A stretch of 32,000 nt of DNA from Pseudoalteromonas tetraodonis (GCF_002310835.1 NZ_CP011041.1:570001-602000), one strand, 5' to 3'; shown: positions 2,830 through 16,132, numbered from the stretch's first letter. The notes: a model not told the origin generated them from the letters alone. Numbers and translations: made by a program.

Positions 2830-2888
2830 TTTTTGAACTTTAATTGGTAGTAAGTTCCACTGTAGAGTGGGGATTTATCGAAATTATG

Positions 2889-2919
2889 AAAGCCGTTGCA
2901 GCAATGCAACGGCTTTTTT
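2889..2919 (+). terminator. Rho-independent terminator of gcvP
   Basis: Perfect 10-bp stem agccgttgca / tgcaacggct (2891-2900 / 2905-2914), 4-nt loop, then a T-run (tttttt). Confidence 0.85.
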
Positions 2920-2950
2920 GTGTGAGGTGATTCGCCATAAATTATATGGG

Positions 2951-3380
2951 GTAGGTTGGGTAGAGTGAAACGAAGCCCAACGATTCTCCAATATCATTAC
3001 CATCTCCCAAGCACGTAAATATGCATTGTTTGTAGGTCGTCCTTTAGGGCGAAAAAAGCGAGAAAAAGAATTTCACCACAGAGATCATAGAGGCGCTTCG
3101 CGCTACACTGAGGGTAAATTTTGTTATAGGAGTCGGTTTTAGCCGTGAATGGTTTGTAGGTTGGGTAGAGCGCAACGAAACCCAACGATTCTCCAATATC
3201 ATTACCACCTCCCAAGCACGTAAATATGTATTGTTTGTAGGTCGCTCTTTAGGGCGATAAGTGAATTTCACCACAGAGAACTCAGAGGCGCTTCGCGCTG
3301 CACCGAGGTTAAAGGTATTTCTGTAGGAGCCAAGCTTGCTGGCGTGCGTGGTTTGTAGGTTGGGCTTTAGCCTGAAATGG
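2951..3380. repeat. Tandem cluster of REP-like hairpins (BIME-like): about 2.1 copies of a roughly 200-205 bp unit
   Basis: The unit restarts at 2951, 3156 and 3355 with gtaggttggg. Each unit holds several (t)gtagg-headed hairpins: gtaggttggg..cccaac, tgtaggtcg(c/t)c.tttagggcga, (c)tgtaggagccaagcttgctggcg / ttataggagtcggttttagccgtga, and gaggcgcttcgcgc. Copies 1 and 2 are near-identical over long stretches. Confidence 0.85.
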
Positions 3381-3399
3381 CTGATGGTTTTTATTGCTA

Positions 3400-3835
3400 A
3401 CTTTTGTCTGGATAAATCCGTGACCTAAATTAGAAACCTTATTCAAGGTTTTGTCGCGCTGGCGACGGCAGCCAAAGAGGGATCTATTTTCAAATTGACT
3501 CTGCTGCAAGCAATTCATCCCTGAAGCTGGGTTACTGTCGGCATCCATGCCTCCACTTCCTCATACTGCGAAGCTGCGCTTCGGTTATTCGTCATCTCCC
3601 TGCGCACCCGAGCATCACGCTTAATCCTTCAAATAATTAATTGATGTGAACGTAAACGGCGAAGATAGGCCATCTTTCACATCCCTGTACGCTCCCCAGT
3701 TCAGCCATCCATGGCCTCTCGTTCAAAGCTGCGCTTTTCACCCATGGCCTAGTTTCGCCTTATCGCGCATCCATGCGCGATATTACTCATCAATTGCTTA
3801 TTTTCAGGGCGTGATGACGGGGGGAGGGGATTAAA
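3400..3835. repeat. Second structured repeat block: short hairpins with a conserved CATCC(A/C)TG centre
   Basis: Hairpins ggcat-cc-atgcc (3540-3551), gccat-cc-atggc (3704-3715), cgcgcat-cc-atgcgcg (3764-3779) and ttca-tccc-tgaa (3514-3525). Recurring words gcgaagctgcgc and tcaaagctgcgc. The ORFs listed here (3309..3548-, 3646..3834+) have repeat-derived, non-protein-like composition. Confidence 0.7.
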
Positions 3836-3970
3836 CGTGAGGTTGGTGTTTGGTCTTGGCAAAGTGTAATGTTTATTGGTTAATATTTTTATGTATGTAG
3901 TAAAGTTTTGATTCCTTTGGTTCTTAGAATAGGTCTTAATAATTTATTGGACTAAAGACTAAATAAATGG

Positions 3971-4016
3971 CTCATAAACTGGATTTGTCATGCTGGTGGT
4001 AAATCCAGTTTATGAG
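3971..4016. repeat. Perfect 16-bp inverted repeat with a 14-nt spacer
   Basis: ctcataaactggattt (3971-3986) and aaatccagtttatgag (4001-4016) are exact reverse complements. It sits about 165 bp upstream of the first island gene, and no T-run follows. Confidence 0.8.
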
Positions 4017-4182
4017 GATGATAATCACTGTAAAGTTGTTTTTATCAGTGGGAGCTATAGAGCTTTTCTGTTAGATTAAATTAAAAAGACACAAAAATAC
4101 AAGGAGCTAGCTAATTTAGGTTTACAATTTTAAACCTAGGAGTATTGATTAGACAAAGTTAAATTAATTGCTGGAGTGTTTT

Positions 4183-5076
4183 ATGAATGGAACCTGCAAA
4201 CTATGTAAAAACCCAAGCGCTCTTGAAAAGAGCCATTTTATTCCCAAATTTATAGGTAAATGGTTAAAGAAAACATCCATAACAGGTTATATCAGAGAGA
4301 AAAATGAGGTTCATAAACGAGCTCAAGATCTTGCTAAAGAATATTGGTTATGCGGCAAATGTGAGGATCTCTTCTCTGATTGGGAAAGAGAGTTTTCTCT
4401 AAAAATATTTTACCCGTTTATTAATGATTCAACTACAAGAATGCCTTATGGCAATTGGTTGTCAAAGTTTGCTGCGTCTCTTTCATGGAGAACTCTAACC
4501 TTTATCAGAAGTAAAAATTTAAAAGATGAAACAAGCAAAAGTAAAGATTACTTGAAAAATTTAGACGGCGCAGAGTTAGCTTTAGCTAACTACCTCTTAG
4601 GTAAGACTGATAACCTTTTTCAATACGAACAACACATTTACCCTGTAGAAGCAATTGATACGCATAATGTAGATAATTTACCTAGGAATATAAATCGATA
4701 TTTTCTACGTAATATAGCAATGGATATCATAGGCAATGATAGTGAAACTTATATCTATACAAAGTTACCTAGCTTTATAATTTTAGGGGTTATTAAAACA
4801 AACGCCTCGAAAATTATTAGGAGCAGTCGAATATCAATCAAAGGAGATGTTCTAAAGCCAAGGGATTACACTTTTCCAGATGGCATAGCTGAATACATTT
4901 TCGAGAAAGCTGAAGAAATATCAAAAATTTATGATGAGATTCCAGTAAAGCAATTGGAGAAAATTAATAAGTTTATAAGTGATAATCCTGACAAAGTGAT
5001 TGAGTCAAAATTATTTCAAGCTATACAGCATGATTATGATCAATTTGGTTCTGAAGCATTTAAGAAAGAGAATTAA
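4183..5076 (+). CDS. HNH_5-like zinc-ribbon protein with an uncharacterised C-terminal domain of about 200 aa
   Basis: I place the start at ATG 4183 (GGAG at 4172-4175) rather than TTG 4168. The N-terminus reads C-x2-C (CKLC), x9-SHFIPKFIGKW, then LCGKCEDLFSDWE. This resembles the CxxC..EH[IV]IP..LGG..CxxCN layout of standalone HNH_5 nucleases, but with Glu where the Asn is expected. The remainder is not recognisable. Confidence 0.7.
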   Translation: MNGTCKLCKNPSALEKSHFIPKFIGKWLKKTSITGYIREKNEVHKRAQDLAKEYWLCGKCEDLFSDWEREFSLKIFYPFINDSTTRMPYGNWLSKFAASLSWRTLTFIRSKNLKDETSKSKDYLKNLDGAELALANYLLGKTDNLFQYEQHIYPVEAIDTHNVDNLPRNINRYFLRNIAMDIIGNDSETYIYTKLPSFIILGVIKTNASKIIRSSRISIKGDVLKPRDYTFPDGIAEYIFEKAEEISKIYDEIPVKQLEKINKFISDNPDKVIESKLFQAIQHDYDQFGSEAFKKEN

Positions 5077-5077
5077 G

Positions 5078-5170
5078 ACCAAAGTGGTCACCCATTAGAA
5101 ATTTCCAGTCAAGCAGGCACCTGCTGACCTTTTCATTCAAAAAAATCAAGTGTTCTTATTTTAAACTCTA
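5078..5170. repeat. Dispersed intergenic repeat, copy B (related copies near 3420, 9353 and 10455)
   Basis: accaaagtggtcacccATTAGAAAtttccagTCAAGCAGGcacctgctgaccttttcATTCAAAAAaatCAAGTgtt aligns with 10455-10540 (gtgacATTAGAAAgttccatTCAAGCAGGcagctg...tttttATTCAAAAAcCAAGTatt). Confidence 0.65.
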
Positions 5171-5255
5171 TTTATTAAGTGCTTAGTACTGATGAATAAG
5201 TACAATAGTTAAAATTTATTTATTTTAATTTTATATTTACAAGGAAGTTGTTTAT

Positions 5256-5564
5256 ATGAATGATGTAACGCCATTTTTATATATTGCTATTTTAGCTTTT
5301 TATTTTTTACACAAAAACGAAGAAGGTAAAATACTAGTACCGATTGTTGCTTTTGCAGCAATACCGTTATTTAGTAACGATTACTGGCTGTGGTTTAAGG
5401 TGAGTATAGGGCTGAGCATCTATGTTTTAATGGTAGAAAAAGCTAAAGCCGGATATACAGGAGGTGGGGCCGTTTCAGCATTCGCCGCATTTTTTATAGG
5501 GGCTTATATGGTCAGTATTGTTATTAATACAGTTATATTTGTAATGGCTAATGGAATTTTTTAA
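5256..5564 (+). CDS. Small integral membrane protein (about 3-4 TM), no recognised family
   Basis: AAGGAAG Shine-Dalgarno sequence about 9 nt upstream of the ATG. 102 aa, dominated by hydrophobic segments. Confidence 0.6.
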   Translation: MNDVTPFLYIAILAFYFLHKNEEGKILVPIVAFAAIPLFSNDYWLWFKVSIGLSIYVLMVEKAKAGYTGGGAVSAFAAFFIGAYMVSIVINTVIFVMANGIF

Positions 5565-5665
5565 CTGTTATTTCGACTTTTTTGTATTACTGTTCAAGCA
5601 AAAATGAAGCGGCTGCAACAAAGGAGTTAATTTTGAGAGGTTTAATTAAACTGGAAGATATTTAA

Positions 5666-5932
5666 ATGATATTAAAAGGCTGCGTAGTAATATTTTGCTT
5701 AGTATGTATTAATCTTTTTGCTCGACATAATATGACTCAAAAGAAAGCTAATGGCTATTCTAATAAGGATTTGTTAAAAATATCATTTGTTTTTTCAAGT
5801 TTACTAACGATATTAACATTAGCTATGATAACTATTGGCACTGAGTTTTCCGGTTCGATTCAATCTATAGGCTTGTTTATTATATATTGGAGTAATATAT
5901 ATGGTTTGCTTAAGGTATGGAGAAATGCATAG
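5666..5932 (+). CDS. Small membrane protein, no recognised family
   Basis: 88 aa with two or three hydrophobic segments. GGAAG lies upstream. Its stop overlaps the next gene (TAG/GTG at 5930-5934), which suggests coupling. A start at Met23 is also possible. Confidence 0.5.
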   Translation: MILKGCVVIFCLVCINLFARHNMTQKKANGYSNKDLLKISFVFSSLLTILTLAMITIGTEFSGSIQSIGLFIIYWSNIYGLLKVWRNA

Positions 5933-6345
5933 TGAGGTTAATTAAGCTTTTTTGTTTACTAAGCGCCATATTTTTTAGTCATCTTGCTACAGGAAATGAT
6001 TTATATTTTGATGTAGGTAAAGCTACACCCTATCTTAGTGTTTGCTCACTTAAAAATGACTTGTCTGAAAGTAATACCATTGTTGATTTTACCAATGATT
6101 TATTAGGTAAAATCTATCATTCATCTGGAGAGACAGAGAAAGATGTTATTGCTTTAGGCACTAATGAATACTTTGATCAGTTGAGTTATCAATCTGCGCT
6201 TGGTGTTACTGAGGAATATGAGTTGTATACATTGTCAAGGTGCGAACGCTTTGCAGTCAATTTTTTAAATAAGTTATGCTCAGACAAAGTGAGTAAACTT
6301 CCATTACCTAAGCTTACATGTACAAAGGCAAAGCAGTATCTTTAA
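5917..6345 (+). CDS. Secreted Cys-containing small protein, no recognised family; has a decayed paralog at 15853-16132
   Basis: N-terminal signal-peptide-like segment (R)LIKLFCLLSAIFFSHLATG|ND. An alternative in-frame GTG start at 5932 has GGAGA 8 nt upstream. The C-terminal half is conserved at protein level in the remnant copy near 16 kb, which supports it as a real gene. Confidence 0.7.
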   Translation: MEKCIVRLIKLFCLLSAIFFSHLATGNDLYFDVGKATPYLSVCSLKNDLSESNTIVDFTNDLLGKIYHSSGETEKDVIALGTNEYFDQLSYQSALGVTEEYELYTLSRCERFAVNFLNKLCSDKVSKLPLPKLTCTKAKQYL

Positions 6346-6853
6346 ATAAAAAACAAATTTAATAAAACTACATTACAAATTAATTTAGAATATTTTTTAA
6401 GGTTTTATTTTCGATTGGCTTTAAAAACCAAAGGGTCATACTTCTGGTTTTAGACATAAAAGGCCTAGATTTATAGTTACCATTGTTGGTGAATTAATGT
6501 ATCTAGATCTCTGCGTATTGAGTCTATGAATGCATTTTATTATTTAATGAATTGCGTAAGAGGGCATGCAAAACACCTTTTTGAATGGTGACTGCTTTAA
6601 GTCTTTTTACATTATATTGAGCAAGCCTACGTTTAATATTTATGTATATTGTCCTGTTTAATGACCAGTCACAACCACCTGCGAATCGAAATCCCCGTTA
6701 CTAATTTCAATACTATAAAACTGTAGCCAACATGGCCAAAAACCTGAAAAGGCGGGTATGTTGGAATTGTGCTGATAGGGTTGAGGCAAGCGAAGCTGGA
6801 GGTTATTCTGGAGGGGGTGCAGGCGAGTTAATATATGAGGTTGTTGAAAAGTA

Positions 6854-7213
6854 ATGGAGCCTATTAAGTTGTGGTTTTTAACTCTGTTTCTTACATCTGC
6901 GGGTCTTTTCTTTTTTATAATATTACCAATTTTAATAGCTATAAAAGATAAAAAAACACGGTTGGTAGAGGATGTTCTAGATGATGGAAATCGTTTTTAC
7001 TCATTAAATATCATAACTGCTGGTAGCGGAGCATTGCACTACGGTTCTATATTTCTATTCGATTGGTATGCTAGACGTTATAAGGTAATAGAGGAGAGAG
7101 ATAAAGTACCCAAAAATTTGCAGATGTGGTTTAAGCTTTATTATATTTTATTTATAACATTTAGCTCTATGTTTTTATTAGCATGCCTCATGGCGTACTT
7201 TTGTTTAGATTAA
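6854..7213 (+). CDS. 3-TM membrane protein, paralog 1 of a tandem pair (possible immunity-type protein)
   Basis: 119 aa. Shares about half its residues with the next ORF, for example VEDVLDDGNRFYSLNI..LHYGSIFLFDWYARRY..RDKVP versus VEDILEHGNRYYSLNI..LHYGSVFLFDWYAKRY..RDKVP. Confidence 0.7.
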   Translation: MEPIKLWFLTLFLTSAGLFFFIILPILIAIKDKKTRLVEDVLDDGNRFYSLNIITAGSGALHYGSIFLFDWYARRYKVIEERDKVPKNLQMWFKLYYILFITFSSMFLLACLMAYFCLD

Positions 7214-7240
7214 CTGCTTTTCTTTTTTGTTGATTAAATA

Positions 7241-7567
7241 ATGGATTTGATATTTTTTGGTGTTGGCTTAAGTGTTATTTTTATCATTCTTTTACCTTTA
7301 GCTTTTTATTTAAAAGCAAAAAAGCTCAGAACGGTTGAAGATATTTTAGAGCATGGAAATCGCTACTATTCCCTAAATATTTTTATGGCGCTTCATGGTT
7401 TACTTCATTATGGCAGTGTATTTTTATTTGATTGGTATGCAAAACGGTATAATTTATTAAGTGATAGAGACAAGGTACCAGCTCACGTCTCGAGATTATT
7501 TAAAGTGTATTTTGTAATTTTTATGCTTTGCGCACTATTAATGTTTTCATCTGTATTCTTTGAATAA
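7241..7567 (+). CDS. 3-TM membrane protein, paralog 2 of the tandem pair
   Basis: 108 aa, collinear with 6854..7213 and separated from it by 27 bp. The conserved core motif is given above. Confidence 0.7.
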   Translation: MDLIFFGVGLSVIFIILLPLAFYLKAKKLRTVEDILEHGNRYYSLNIFMALHGLLHYGSVFLFDWYAKRYNLLSDRDKVPAHVSRLFKVYFVIFMLCALLMFSSVFFE

Positions 7568-7773
7568 AGACTTAGATTTTAAAGAGCAAAGGACTAAATA
7601 AAAGGAAAAAAGGTCAATGGATGAGCTTGTTAGGTCTCTTTTGGTCTATATAAATAAACTCCGTATTTTGACAAAGTAGTTTTGAGTGAGATTTAGTAAC
7701 TCTATTTCAAAGGTGTACATTAATTGGGGAAATATATAATATTGTTAATATCTAATATTAAACGGATTTAATT

Positions 7774-8202
7774 ATGGAAGAAGTTACATTTTTTTCAGAA
7801 AATAAAGTTAAAGAAAAATTACAAGTACATTTTGATGGCCTGCAAAACCAACAAGTATTATATGGAAAGAAGGTAGAAAAAATATTTAAAAGAAAAAATT
7901 GCACGTATATATTCTTTACCTCCGATGATTCTCCATACGAGGAGACATTATATATTACTTTGATTGATTCAAAAGGTGAGGTTATTGAAAGTGTTGAACT
8001 CTCGAAGCCGTATTCTCCAGGGATTTTGAAAGATTTAATAATTAAAAATGATCAAACGATTGAATTCAAATTTTGGGGGGATTCGATAAATAATTTAATT
8101 ATTGCCGACAAAAAAAAAGTGCATATTTCTCATGCAATACCTTCAAATGGCCTTCGTTACTCAAATAAATTATCACCAAGTTATCTAACAATAAAAGATT
8201 AA
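7774..8202 (+). CDS. Soluble 142-aa hypothetical protein, probably co-transcribed with 8214..9242
   Basis: Long ORF in AT-rich DNA, which would otherwise be rich in stop codons. Only 11 bp separate it from the next gene. No hydrophobic segments. No clear Shine-Dalgarno sequence. Confidence 0.55.
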   Translation: MEEVTFFSENKVKEKLQVHFDGLQNQQVLYGKKVEKIFKRKNCTYIFFTSDDSPYEETLYITLIDSKGEVIESVELSKPYSPGILKDLIIKNDQTIEFKFWGDSINNLIIADKKKVHISHAIPSNGLRYSNKLSPSYLTIKD

Positions 8203-8213
8203 GGTTTACAAAC

Positions 8214-9242
8214 ATGGACTCGTTTATTTCTGACAAAGATGTAGAAACTAGTATTAGGCAAATGGAAGTAGCAGCAATTAACTTTGGTAGTCGTTTCATA
8301 AATGATTCAAAAGTAAGGGCGCTATATATGGAACAGACAAAAAAAATGTCTTTGGAATTAGTTAATGCTTATAAGACTGGAGTCATAACACCTAAACAAG
8401 CTGCTGTAGCTGCGAATGAAATGCGAAATGAAATCATGGCTGTCTCTCGCAGTAAAACTAGTGATATTGGTAAAGCTAAGGTTGTTAAGTTAAAGGCCAG
8501 TGGTTTGAATTTAGAGGTATTACTAGATAAATATGCAAAAAGCCAGTTCGGTAAAGGTTTTGGCGAGCTAAATGAATCAGAAGCTTCATCTATTTATAAA
8601 AAGATAGTTCAAAGTGCAGGGAAGGCAAACCCTAACGTTAGCGCCAAAGCAAACAACTTAGGCAAAGCAGGGCGAAGCTTATGGGTACTTTCTATATGTA
8701 TCGCAGTTTATAATATTAGTAGTTCAGATAATAAACTCAAAGCGGCAGGACGTGAAGCAACTAACATTGGAGGTGGCTTTGCTGGAGGCGCCGCTGGGGG
8801 CGCGACTGCTGGCATCTGGTTTGGGCCTATAGGTGTAGCAGTAGGTGTTGTTGTTGGTGGAGTTTTGGGTTCTATTATATCTGATCAAGTATATATTGAA
8901 CTTGCAGGCCCAGATGGGGAGTTTGCCAGAAGCTTTATACCTCGCTTTACTAATGTTTTTTCTACTAATGAGAATAAAATGGCGAGTGCTTTAATTACTG
9001 AGTGTACATATGAATTAGATAAGGTAATGGCTGTTTTTATACAGTTGAATGATAAGTATTTTACAGATGTTGATGACATAGCAATTGCTTATATAGAGTT
9101 GATTAGAACAGGTAGGTATCCTCTTATTAAGCAAGCTCTATCACTAAATAAAGCTCTGAAAAATTATCTTATTCAGATACTGGGTAGCGGCTGGACATCG
9201 TCTTCTGAGAAAGAATGCATAAGGTACCTTCGCCATGTTTAG
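8214..9242 (+). CDS. Glycine-zipper membrane-hairpin protein (candidate pore-forming or membrane-active protein)
   Basis: 342 aa. An amphipathic helical N-terminal half comes first, then AKANNLGKAGRSLWVLSICIAVYNI, then NIGGGFAGGAAGGATAGIWFGPIGVAVGVVVGGVLGSII (repeated GxxxG/A), then a soluble C-terminal region of about 110 aa. Confidence 0.75.
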   Translation: MDSFISDKDVETSIRQMEVAAINFGSRFINDSKVRALYMEQTKKMSLELVNAYKTGVITPKQAAVAANEMRNEIMAVSRSKTSDIGKAKVVKLKASGLNLEVLLDKYAKSQFGKGFGELNESEASSIYKKIVQSAGKANPNVSAKANNLGKAGRSLWVLSICIAVYNISSSDNKLKAAGREATNIGGGFAGGAAGGATAGIWFGPIGVAVGVVVGGVLGSIISDQVYIELAGPDGEFARSFIPRFTNVFSTNENKMASALITECTYELDKVMAVFIQLNDKYFTDVDDIAIAYIELIRTGRYPLIKQALSLNKALKNYLIQILGSGWTSSSEKECIRYLRHV

Positions 9243-9352
9243 TTACAGGGTCTAATTTAGTCAAACAGTGCTTTTTCCATTTGACCTAAATACCTCCTTA
9301 TAATATTGAGGAGGTTAAAATATCCAAACATATTCTGAATATTCAGTAGAAA

Positions 9353-9398
9353 ACCAAAAGCCGAAGGGCGGCCATTGATAACCTCTGGTCAAGCAGGG
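9353..9398. repeat. Dispersed intergenic repeat, copy C (degenerate)
   Basis: accaaaagccgaagggcggccattgataacctctggTCAAGCAGGg shares the accaaa(a)g head and TCAAGCAGG core with copies at 5078 and 10455. Confidence 0.45.
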
Positions 9399-9624
9399 AT
9401 GTTTGTCTTTGCCTTGAATACAATACGACATATCCAGCCTTAATATACCCATCTTAAAGACACATAAAAGTATTAATTGCTGTAAACACCCTGTTTGTAC
9501 CTAGAGTGCTTACCTCTTTTATAACTAATTGTTTAACAGTACCTAATTTAGGATTAGTATTAGGTACTACTTAAAACAATAATAAAATAAGTGCTAGAAA
9601 TAGCCTTTTATAAAAGAGGTATTC

Positions 9625-10371
9625 ATGGAAGATCTATTTATAAGTTTATTTGCAAATGTCGGCGTTATATTACTTTTAGTTTTGATATTAAAAGCAATTA
9701 AAAAAGTTGATTTAAATCTAATGTGGTCTTTGATTTCGTTAGGTATTTTAGTTTGCTACTTTTTTGCTTTGTTTAAAGGTGGAAAGGTTATTCTCTTGGA
9801 TATGCTTTTTCCTGATATGTCGTGGAATTGGTCTGGAAAAGTAGCGGCAATAATCCTTTGGTTAGTCGTACTATTAGCTTTAGTTAAATTTAAAGCTAAC
9901 TTTCGTATTGCAGATGCTGGTTTTACTTTTAAGCAAAATGAAAATTCTATAAAACCCGCTTTTACAGTTATGTGCTTGTTTATCATTTTACAGATAGTTG
10001 TATCACTTTTTTGGAGTGGTGAACCTAATTACGATTTAGAAACCTTACTTTATCAAGCAACAATGCCAGGCTTTGATGAAGAGCCTATGTTTAGAGGGAT
10101 TCTTTTATTTTGTATATCTTTGGCAATTATATCTGAACGCTACAGTTTAGGTGGTGCGTCAATTAACATTGCAGGGTTGCTCTTAGTGGTGTTATTTGGA
10201 CTAGTTCATGGCGTTATGTTTAATGGTGGAGAGTGGCACTTTTCTTTCCCCGCTATTTTATTAACAGGTGGCTACGGTTTTATTTTGCTTTGGCTAAGAG
10301 AGCGCACAGGGAGTTTGGTGTTCCCTATTTTAGCCCATAATAGTGTTAACTTTGTTGGGCAGCTAATTTAA
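9625..10371 (+). CDS. CPBP family (CAAX/Abi-type) intramembrane glutamic metalloprotease
   Basis: All three family motifs occur in order inside a polytopic membrane protein: EEPMFRG (EExxxR), LFGLVHG (FxxxH) and ILAHNSVNF (HxxxN). AGAGG Shine-Dalgarno sequence upstream. Confidence 0.85.
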   Translation: MEDLFISLFANVGVILLLVLILKAIKKVDLNLMWSLISLGILVCYFFALFKGGKVILLDMLFPDMSWNWSGKVAAIILWLVVLLALVKFKANFRIADAGFTFKQNENSIKPAFTVMCLFIILQIVVSLFWSGEPNYDLETLLYQATMPGFDEEPMFRGILLFCISLAIISERYSLGGASINIAGLLLVVLFGLVHGVMFNGGEWHFSFPAILLTGGYGFILLWLRERTGSLVFPILAHNSVNFVGQLI

Positions 10372-10387
10372 TTAAAAGTTTAATTTA

Positions 10388-10422
10388 AAAGAGATAAAAT
10401 CTTATTTAAGTTTTATCTCTTT
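10388..10422 (+). terminator. Hairpin terminator after the CPBP gene
   Basis: aaagagataaaa / ttttatctcttt: 12-bp perfect stem, 11-nt loop, AT-rich tail. Confidence 0.6.
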
Positions 10423-10454
10423 ACCAAGAGTTCTCAAAGAAGGCTCGTTTTGCA

Positions 10455-10540
10455 AGTGACATTAGAAAGTTCCATTCAAGCAGGCAGCTGTGTTTTCTTG
10501 ATGTTTTTATTCAAAAACCAAGTATTGTTACTTTTTCAAC
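10455..10540. repeat. Dispersed intergenic repeat, copy D, at the distal edge of the island
   Basis: See copy B. The ATTAGAAA..TCAAGCAGG..ATTCAAAAA..CAAGT blocks are shared in the same order and orientation. Confidence 0.65.
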
Positions 10541-10877
10541 CAATTTAAATATGGCTATGGACCTAGTAATGGCCTCGATTGGTGAGAATATGCGCTATGG
10601 CTTGGGTAAAGAACGCCCTATGAATTTGAGCCTTTGGTTATCGGCTCTGTCATCGTTTAGTGTCAGTATTATTTTTAGCCACATTCACGCATTCAGCCAT
10701 ATCAATTGAGCCTGTAAACGGTGTCTTTCCTTCATAACAAAACGAGCCGTTTTATATAGGAGACTGTTAAAAAAGCACTAAAACTGATAAAACTGTACTT
10801 TGCAAAATTTTAATTGCATTGAATGTATAGGCATTAACTTTATTAAGTGCATGCCATACCAAGCAAAGGGAGAAGCA

Positions 10878-15852: not shown

Positions 15853-16132
15853 ATGTTTTTATCATTTTTTAAAAATCTTTTATATTGTTTATATAGTAAT
15901 TTACTCGGTCAAATCTATCACTCATCCGCAGAGACAGATGTTATTGCTTAAGGTGCTTTATCAGTTGAGTTATCAATCTGCGCTAGGTGTTACTGAGAAA
16001 TAAGAGTTATATACTTTATCAAGGTGTGGGCGTTATGCAGTAAGCCGTTTAAAGAAACTATGCCCAGATAAAGCGAGTAAATTTTTATTACCTAAAATGA
16101 CATGTACAAAAGCAGAACGCTATTTTAAATAA
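15853..16132 (+). pseudogene. Decayed paralog of island gene 5917..6345
   Basis: Nucleotide and protein similarity to 6098-6348: NLLGQIYHSSAETDVIA* matches DLLGKIYHSSGETEKDVIAL, then QLSYQSALGVTEK*ELYTLSRCGRYAVSRLKKLCPDKASKFLLPKMTCTKAERYFK* matches QLSYQSALGVTEEYELYTLSRCERFAVNFLNKLCSDKVSKLPLPKLTCTKAKQYL*. There are in-frame stops at 15949-15951 and 16001-16003, plus internal deletions. Confidence 0.8.

Follow-up and report, generated by a model that had tools for sequence, protein, structure and literature searches.

What kind of gene island stands between gcvP and the gene for an AI-2E transporter in Pseudoalteromonas tetraodonis, and by what route did its genes come to be there? We address this question for a 32,000-nt stretch of the genome (GCF_002310835.1, NZ_CP011041.1:570001-602000; one strand, hereafter the window, in whose coordinates positions are given) in which gcvP runs up to 2829 and 10878 is the first position of the AI-2E transporter gene (Pfam 1.9e-44). 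Between them lie nine intact open reading frames (ORFs), all on the + strand, and one 40-codon remnant of a toxin-type gene at 6732-6854 (Table 1). The reading we favour, to which we give a probability of roughly 0.6, is that this is a mosaic conflict island in a recombination hot spot 3' of gcvP in non-pigmented Pseudoalteromonas, in which at least three segments have been exchanged independently of one another.

The interval is atypical in composition and variable between close relatives

Base composition sets the island apart from its surroundings. GC content is 32.6% between 3840 and 10545, against 45.3% in gcvP, 46.1% in the zone 2830-3839 and 40.0% over everything outside the island; GC at third codon positions (GC3) is 0.22-0.29 in the island genes and 0.31-0.39 in the flanking genes, and the tetranucleotide distance from the remaining window is largest at 4-9 kb. 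The first-pass annotation of this DNA had claimed, by eye, an AT-rich island of nine + strand ORFs with no tRNA, integrase or transposase ORF, and the composition check and the gene inventory agree with it: the window contains no tRNA and no Rfam family, and neither ORF calls nor family scans find an integrase, recombinase or transposase ORF within 2830-10877. Scans of all island proteins against Pfam, NCBIfam, PADLOC and PHROGs return only the CPBP protease, low-complexity matches for w342 and, for w302, a PHROG whose function is unknown. Atypical composition and strain-variable presence are what one expects of a classical integrase-borne island; the present one has no terminal integrase and does not sit beside a tRNA or tmRNA gene between flanking direct repeats, and the direct repeats within the island are insertion sequence (IS) relics, namely ends of an IS110-family element.

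We collected sister loci by looking up the exact w342 and w302 proteins, and refer to loci by L numbers. One of them, contig BJXY01000025 of GCA_007991235.1 (L006/L022), is 100% identical over 12 kb of the window, and the backbone of Pseudoalteromonas sp. SM9913 (CP001796, L005) is 97-99% identical. When the interval is aligned across relatives, as had been proposed, its content is found to differ even between close ones, and the differences divide it into three independently exchanged segments: A (3871-5568; w302, repeat copy a and w102), B (5569-6422; w88 and w142a) and C (6423-10459; the remainder). Segment A is common, at ~99%, to L021, L024, L026 and L028 and is absent from L003-L005 and L009. 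In these last, SM9913-type loci, a type II-A retron (PADLOC NDT_II-A 6e-83, RT_II-A 8e-121) and an intact 324-aa Y1 transposase stand between gcvP and the w119 gene; L007 carries instead a 720-aa SEC-C protein and DUF6957. Segment B is swapped for Tae4 (Pfam 4.9e-21) and a lipoprotein immunity-like gene in L026, where the order is w302, w102, Tae4, lipoprotein gene and then w119 and w108 homologs. It is swapped for a 245-aa gene and a histidine kinase/LytTR pair in L021, also P. tetraodonis, which runs gcvP, w302, w102, 245-aa gene, histidine kinase, LytTR regulator, AI-2E, without the toxin modules. In segment C, identity over 6773-10459 is 97-99% among L003-L009. In P. mariniglutinosa (L001) the upstream content is wholly different except for one island segment, the AI-2E gene is 84% identical, and homology to the window's backbone restarts exactly at 10461.

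We also note that the 245-aa protein of L021, whose function is unknown, and its His_kinase (LytS-type)/LytTR pair (L021 9812-12317) occupy the place of the toxin modules between two IS-end repeats.

A retron or Tae4 at the same place in sister strains speaks for conflict-type rather than metabolic content, and here the view of a horizontally exchanged, compositionally atypical island is upheld. The description of its genes as orphans is not: w302, w142b/w342 and w119/w108 all belong to widespread families.

A toxin-gene remnant precedes two intact partner genes

Segment C contains a dead gene of a predicted glycine-zipper toxin family, followed by the intact genes w119 and w108. The remnant keeps only the codons for ~aa 218-246 and 322-340, the zipper and the N-terminal 217 aa being lost, and the two pieces are 88% and 96% identical in nucleotides to L001 7804-7889 and 8118-8175, inside an intact 340-aa gene of P. 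mariniglutinosa (the L340 type). In L001, genes of 119 and 108 aa come directly after this gene, and w119 shares 95.6% aa identity with the gene directly 3' of the intact toxin gene. Over the whole module, window 6797-7573 matches L001 8118-8894 at 96% nucleotide identity where the flanking backbone reaches only 84%, which indicates that the w119/w108 module was exchanged horizontally, and recently, between the two species.

The L340 family is widespread (Vibrio, Photobacterium, Shewanella, Moritella, Agarivorans). The more distant relatives found in Pseudomonas have a PAAR domain, and their alignment covers 96% of the toxin (E 1e-35 to 1e-40); other distant relatives carry LysM. A V. alginolyticus toxin homolog is followed by a 121-aa gene whose product is 47% identical to w108 and 39% to w119, the Pseudomonas PAAR-toxin gene is followed by a weakly similar 128-aa gene, and all proteins of the w119/w108 type have two hydrophobic segments. 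Two hallmarks of effector-immunity pairs belonging to a type VI secretion system (T6SS) are thus found: PAAR-fused relatives, both of L340 and of the N domain and zipper of w342 (below), and an adjacent partner gene conserved across genera. One published candidate for comparison, the VP1388-1390 'binary effector module' (PMC8728615), was set aside, since w119 and w108 do not resemble its immunity protein, which has 375 aa and is periplasmic.

A metagenome contig from the same hot spot (L056, Ga0209603_1004973) carries an intact L340-type toxin gene accompanied by a w108-like gene; farther on come w102, w88, w142a, an intact gene for a REP-associated Y1 transposase (RAYT; REP, repetitive extragenic palindrome), the toxin remnant, w119 and w108. 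Because of this array we take toxin-plus and toxin-minus configurations to coexist in nature. We infer that w119 and w108 are orphan immunity genes against a toxin made by strains that share this hot spot and by the sister species, and that they would protect the present strain from relatives still producing it.

A second glycine-zipper family is paired with a conserved upstream gene

The other predicted toxin of segment C, w342, is laid out as a helical N domain, a glycine-zipper hairpin at ~181-232 and a helical C domain. It has ~130 full-length homologs of ~340 aa (37-91% identity) in Gammaproteobacteria, Myxococcota and Planctomycetota, all annotated as hypothetical, and in Agarivorans (41% identity), Marinobacter (33%) and a metagenome-assembled genome (28%) a w142b homolog of 146-148 aa always precedes the w342 homolog. 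A profile search of 1.84 billion representative sequences yields 1337 relatives, most of which match only positions ~5-227, that is, the N domain and zipper, at the C-terminal end of 230-530-aa proteins. Among the longer relatives, P0510 has an N-terminal PAAR domain (4.7e-18), three have PG_binding_1, one has a Hint domain and one, of 1360 aa, ends in a non-specific endonuclease; judged by their domain order, these fusions are a polymorphic-toxin architecture. In L106 a short, 234-aa relative of w342 is followed by a 151-aa w142b homolog (E 2e-8), near an Imm51 gene. The AlphaFold model of w342 is all-helical, with a predicted local distance difference test (pLDDT) score of 66 and the zipper unmodelled; Foldseek finds no PDB match to it at E<=0.001, and a sequence search of the PDB returns nothing for w342, w302 or w142b. 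We read w342 as a putative membrane-inserting toxin, which would insert into and depolarise the inner membrane, and w142b as its likely antidote.

Does the CPBP protease gene, with which segment C ends, belong to this pair? The label given to it at first holds good: the protein scores 42.7 bits on Pfam PF02517 (7e-11; cut-off 22.4), matches NCBIfam CPBP_Sphingo below that model's cut-off (1e-47) and has the motifs EExxxR, FxxxH and HxxxN in its translation (EEPMFR, FGLVH, HNSVN). In SM9913 an IS with Transposase_mut (IS256-type; L005 11503-12797) splits the gene, with an 8-bp overlap of the flanks that corresponds to window 9709-9716. Since w342 is intact and identical in that strain, the protease is probably not its antidote, and a role as required immunity partner was rejected on this ground. 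The gene is absent from L001 and L021 and never follows the w342 homologs of Agarivorans, Marinobacter and the metagenome-assembled genome; it would be a dispensable end to the segment.

These observations bear on the suggestion, made in the first-pass annotation, that the island is of bacteriocin/immunity kind. CPBP (Abi-type) proteins are bacteriocin immunity proteins in Gram-positive bacteria, the domain here has intact motifs, and in one source the name 'CAAX amino terminal protease self-immunity' is given to a close homolog; these points speak for a classical secreted bacteriocin cluster with the protease as immunity determinant. ORF and family scans find no leader-peptide precursor, ABC exporter or processing gene, however, and the protease is unlinked to w342 outside Pseudoalteromonas and interrupted in SM9913. 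The predicted toxins are of the polymorphic, PAAR/T6SS-linked glycine-zipper type instead, and we give the bacteriocin account only a very slim chance.

Segments A and B stand where relatives carry a retron or Tae4

The first gene of the island, w302, belongs to a family of ~175 homologs of ~292 aa (50-87% identity) in Vibrio, Shewanella, Alcanivorax, Methylophaga and Desulfobacter, whose alignment makes 4183 the probable start of the 297-aa protein and shows a conserved CxxC...H...CxxC pattern. An HNH_5-like label had been attached to it, for which we find no support: neither w302 nor 38 scanned family members match Pfam, w302 matches no NCBIfam model, and its AlphaFold model, although confident (pLDDT 89.5; predicted template-modelling score 0.89), has no Foldseek match at E<=0.001 in the PDB or BFVD. 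It does match phrog_26326 over its full length (1e-51). In V. cholerae the homolog is a superintegron cassette (L110 1-3152, contig QEDB01000073), where five Vibrio cholerae repeats (VCRs) separate it from an acetyltransferase gene, a DUF645 gene and other cassettes. Because it is allelic with the retron and moves as a single-gene cassette, w302 is a candidate phage-defence or conflict gene; it would be a self-contained cassette in the retron's place.

The small proteins w102, w88 and w142a have no match in Pfam, NCBIfam or PADLOC and, at 90% identity, are restricted to Pseudoalteromonas. The first travels with w302 in L021, L026 and L028, flanked in L021 by repeat copies. The other two occupy the exact place of Tae4 and its lipoprotein neighbour in L026, and since their position matches that of Tae4 and an immunity-like gene, an immunity-type role is suggested for them. 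We regard all three as probably immunity-type proteins, and w142a as a probable periplasmic one; in terms of gene order, w102, w88 and w142a would stand in for Tae4 and its immunity gene. Elsewhere in the window, a second AT-rich islet (15.5-16.5 kb, GC ~0.30) contains a frameshifted, decayed w142a paralog at 15853-16126, 74% identical over aa 88-141.

With a retron at the same locus, could the whole island serve anti-phage defence? The glycine-zipper proteins would then be abortive-infection effectors that depolarise the membrane of their own host under the restraint of w142b, and w302 and the small proteins would be defence proteins as well. The type II-A retron of the sister strains is bona fide, w142b-w342 is a compact two-gene cassette that crosses phyla in unrelated neighbourhoods, w302 matches a phage/prophage protein family and is an integron cassette, and integron cassettes include phage defence genes (bioRxiv 10.1101/2024.07.02.601719). 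Yet no PADLOC model matches; the PAAR-fused relatives of both zipper families and the Hint- and nuclease-fused relatives of w342 are typical of secreted polymorphic toxins; Tae4, a T6SS effector family, sits at this very locus in L026; and a toxin remnant beside immunity genes that were kept is the classic orphan-immunity pattern. On balance we think it unlikely that defence accounts for the whole island, and we retain the reading of a mosaic conflict island in which segment C would serve interbacterial antagonism, with a dead PAAR/T6SS-linked glycine-zipper toxin gene beside intact w119 and w108.

Segment junctions bear relics of an IS110-family element in REP hairpins

A repeat shared by the spacers had been noticed at the outset, and this is real for two clear copies (5082-5174, 10460-10627); the other two (approximately 6364-6431 and 9373-9403) are degenerate. 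The copies lying at 5093 and at 10460 both fit a 26-nt pattern whose chance expectation is 0. All copies share a left edge, at which ...GGGGTCACC meets CATTAGAAAG..., and are variously truncated on the right. A metagenome scan finds the repeat at 73 loci, with many copies in the same gcvP hot spot, and full-length copies reveal what it is: the terminal, non-coding end (~440 nt) of an IS110-family element, downstream of the gene for a 345-aa transposase that has both a DEDD_Tnp_IS110 and a Transposase_20 domain. The complete element measures 1.58 kb (L053 3066-4643; also L081, L093, L069, L095). Both transposase domains are found in the L053 and L081 copies; the window has end relics only and no IS110 transposase. 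At the junctions of full copies the insertion lies in the loop of a REP hairpin, GGGGTCA^AATCTTGACTTCAGACATC, and this hairpin precedes a Y1 transposase (RAYT) gene. A RAYT gene remnant also lies in the island; at the nucleotide level it is 74.7% identical to the beginning of the Y1_Tnp gene (324 aa, intact) that L003 carries (tblastn aa 1-71, E 6e-8).

Of 65 copies, 48 come after an ORF on the same strand and have an AT-rich left flank; copies also lie 3' of the retron reverse transcriptase gene (L003), of w102 (L021, L028) and of the Tae4 module (L026); and homology between strains breaks at the relic's outer edge, L001 resuming at 10461 and L008 diverging exactly at 10460. No copy is found in viral contigs, so the repeat is no obvious phage attP. 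An integron attC site was considered and dismissed, the repeat being an IS110 end plus half a REP, though no dedicated attC model was used. As RNA, copy e of the window folds no better than shuffled sequences (z +0.3) and the full non-coding end gives a modest structure signal (z -2.4), and Rfam finds nothing on a full IS copy. That IS110-family elements target REPs and leave solo downstream modules is already known (PMC1525189, PMC12288879), as is the guidance of IS110-family recombinases by bridge or seek RNAs (PMC11208160, PMC11187229).

Solo end modules of ~100-280 nt are common and recall ssr9 of ISPpu9. The IS110-family end also contains GGTCAAG...TCTTGATC, a sequence that looks like both arms of its REP target and might act as a guide loop. 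Between gcvP and the island, the structured repeats that the first-pass annotation had pointed out are indeed present: ~205-bp tandem units (92% identical) at 2947-3380, in a GC-rich zone (46%), built of REP-like palindromes (GTAGGTTGGG...CCCAAC and TGTAGGTCG...CGA). Upstream of AI-2E, the IS110-end relic contains an ORF of 52 codons (10551-10709) that some assemblies annotate as a gene of 46 aa; since a 14-nt indel distinguishes related copies, this ORF is unlikely to be a gene.

To how the genes were acquired, which the first-pass annotation had found unclear, there are now three leads: IS110-end relics in REP hairpins at the junctions, the RAYT remnant, and a Tn7-like element that in sister strains ends just after gcvP. 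The last raises the question of whether a Tn7-like transposon, or some other integrative element attaching at the 3' end of gcvP, left the island stranded as its cargo and has since lost its transposition genes. Such an element (TnsA, TnsB, TnsC/TniB, TniQ and TnsD) lies upstream in L008 (1-1603), L009 and L024, and its junction (L009 ~4244, L024 ~6472) corresponds to window 2833-2856, 4-27 bp 3' of the gcvP stop; the 3' end of gcvP may thus be an attTn7-like site, although the loci as fetched did not include gcvP itself. L001 has at 9435-9479 a 45-bp copy (84% identical) of the last gcvP codons, immediately to the left of the IS-end relic that precedes AI-2E. The copy, more than 9 kb from the place expected for gcvP, hints either at a former position of gcvP next to this site or at a replacement 3' end brought by an element. 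In L009 and L024, however, both the REP zone and the genes of the island are situated past the Tn7-like junction and hence outside the element, no Tn7 end repeats or tns remnants are seen in the window, and the segments are exchanged independently of each other. Stranded Tn7 cargo is therefore very unlikely in our estimate.

A more specific version of the IS110 connection would have the island assembled much as an integron is, by a process not yet described, from cassettes that end in REP hairpins. A bridge/seek-RNA-guided IS110-family recombinase, provided in trans by complete copies elsewhere in the genome, would act at the REP/IS-end junctions to insert, delete or swap cassettes 3' of gcvP, and w302 would be a new single-gene anti-phage system of novel fold. 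This process would explain why breakpoints sit precisely on the relics' outer edges; taken with its claim about w302, we find it rather improbable. Under the mosaic reading we propose a looser scheme, in which gene flux would combine homologous recombination in the conserved flanks with recombination at REP hairpins targeted by the IS110-family element and by RAYT, whose relics would mark the segment junctions. That IS110/REP recombination drives cassette exchange at this locus is thus a suggestion, drawn from where the relics lie.

Other features of the island

Promoter-like sites are not in excess in the window (26 against a shuffle mean of 30.4); terminator-like sites number 9 against a shuffle mean of 3.7 (sd 1.9), which does not resolve the operon structure. 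A perfect 16-bp inverted repeat at 3971-4016 (CTCATAAACTGGATTT, a 14-nt gap, AAATCCAGTTTATGAG), ~170 bp 5' of w302, could be an operator or a terminator.

Table 1. Features of the island between gcvP and the AI-2E transporter gene, in window coordinates.
Feature	Position	Strand	Description
w302	4183-5076	+	297 aa; candidate conflict/defence gene, single-gene cassette
IS110-family end relic (repeat copy a)	5079-5174		Abuts half a REP hairpin, ccaaagtGGTCACC joined to CATTAG...
w102	5256-5564	+	Small membrane protein; glycine-rich C-terminal transmembrane (TM) segment
w88	5666-5932	+	Small 2-TM protein
w142a	5917-6345	+	142 aa; secreted, Cys-containing, signal-peptide-like N-terminus
Degenerate IS110-end repeat copy, then degenerate REP	6364-6440		REP: CCAAAGGGTCATAC; low confidence
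RAYT gene remnant	6423-6707	+	5' part
L340-type glycine-zipper toxin gene remnant	6708-6854	+
w119	6854-7213	+	2-TM; putative immunity protein of L340 toxin family, orphan copy 1
w108	7241-7567	+	w119 paralog (49% identity); putative orphan immunity copy 2
w142b	7774-8202	+	Soluble 142-aa w342 partner; probable cognate immunity protein
w342	8214-9242	+	Glycine-zipper membrane protein; predicted membrane-permeabilising toxin
Weak degenerate IS110-end repeat copy	9359-9403		3' of w342; 65% match, low confidence
CPBP (Rce1-like) intramembrane glutamic protease gene	9625-10371	+	Pfam PF02517
IS110-family end relic (repeat copy e)	10460-10627		Right border of the variable region

Discussion

Several results weigh against the conflict-island reading. 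The proteins w119 and w108 have no Pfam match at E<=0.1, and this includes DUF1240, the family of the published Tmi immunity proteins. PADLOC 2.0 finds no known defence system in the window, only a chance-level match of w342 (LeoBC, E 0.0095). Four proteins, w302, w102, w88 and w142a, are without functional homology and take their proposed roles from position. The zipper regions of w342 and L340 align with a probability of 91% in hhalign (E 9e-7, 81 columns), a similarity that lies mostly in a glycine-rich low-complexity region, so that the score may be partly compositional. The w342 homologs keep a fixed architecture of ~340 aa across phyla, in unrelated neighbourhoods without T6SS genes, a pattern that would also fit a toxin-antitoxin or abortive-infection module, and it is unusual for the immunity protein of a membrane toxin to be soluble. 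Finally, the 32-kb window contains no T6SS genes; a literature search for the system in this clade found it only in P. flavipulchra (PMC3853003). Secretion by a T6SS would be a delivery route suggested by the PAAR-fused relatives.

How does the locus compare with systems already described? The nearest likeness for segment C is to the Tme/Tmi T6SS pairs (Fridman et al. 2020, PMC7046647), in which a toxin with a glycine-rich membrane-inserting end is followed by a small gene for a multi-TM immunity protein, and to orphan immunity arrays; shared with these are PAAR-fused relatives, stand-alone bicistrons near mobile elements and immunity that outlasts the toxin. The differences lie in the partners: Tmi proteins are DUF1240-like with 3-6 TM helices, whereas w119 and w108 have two TM segments and no match to that family, and the partner of w342 is soluble and encoded upstream. 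With defence islands and variable hot spots the locus shares its fixed core flanks (gcvP, AI-2E), AT-rich variable content, a retron allele and the lack of a dedicated integrase; here, however, toxin-immunity modules are mixed with defence genes, and the present strain has no system that PADLOC recognises.

The repeat, in turn, resembles ISPpu9/ssr9 (PMC12288879) and the REP-targeting IS elements of Tobes and Pareja (2006, PMC1525189) in its DEDD transposase, in insertion inside a REP hairpin in one orientation, in a long non-coding region 3' of the transposase gene and in solo copies scattered in the genome. The window differs in having only truncated relics without a transposase, and these lie at cassette junctions, which is undescribed for ISPpu9. 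Integron arrays, including clusters of attC sites lacking an integrase (CALINs), likewise have small, promoter-poor genes on one strand and a recurring repeat, and w302 is a true cassette in V. cholerae; the repeat here is an IS110 end with half a REP rather than attC, there is no integron integrase, and the cassette units comprise several genes.

As a type of locus, then, the strain-variable conflict island is already known, and it is the individual genes that are mostly uncharacterised. Two of the families are uncharacterised glycine-zipper toxins by prediction, each with PAAR-fused relatives and a conserved partner gene, and w119 and w108 would offer a natural case of orphan immunity in which the toxin is retained in strains of the L056 type and in a sister species (L001). 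Widespread, mobile in integrons, allelic with a retron and confidently modelled in a fold without a known match, w302 is a candidate for a new conflict gene. REP hairpins targeted by IS110-family elements at cassette junctions, for their part, may link REP/IS110 biology to the turnover of genes in marine bacteria.

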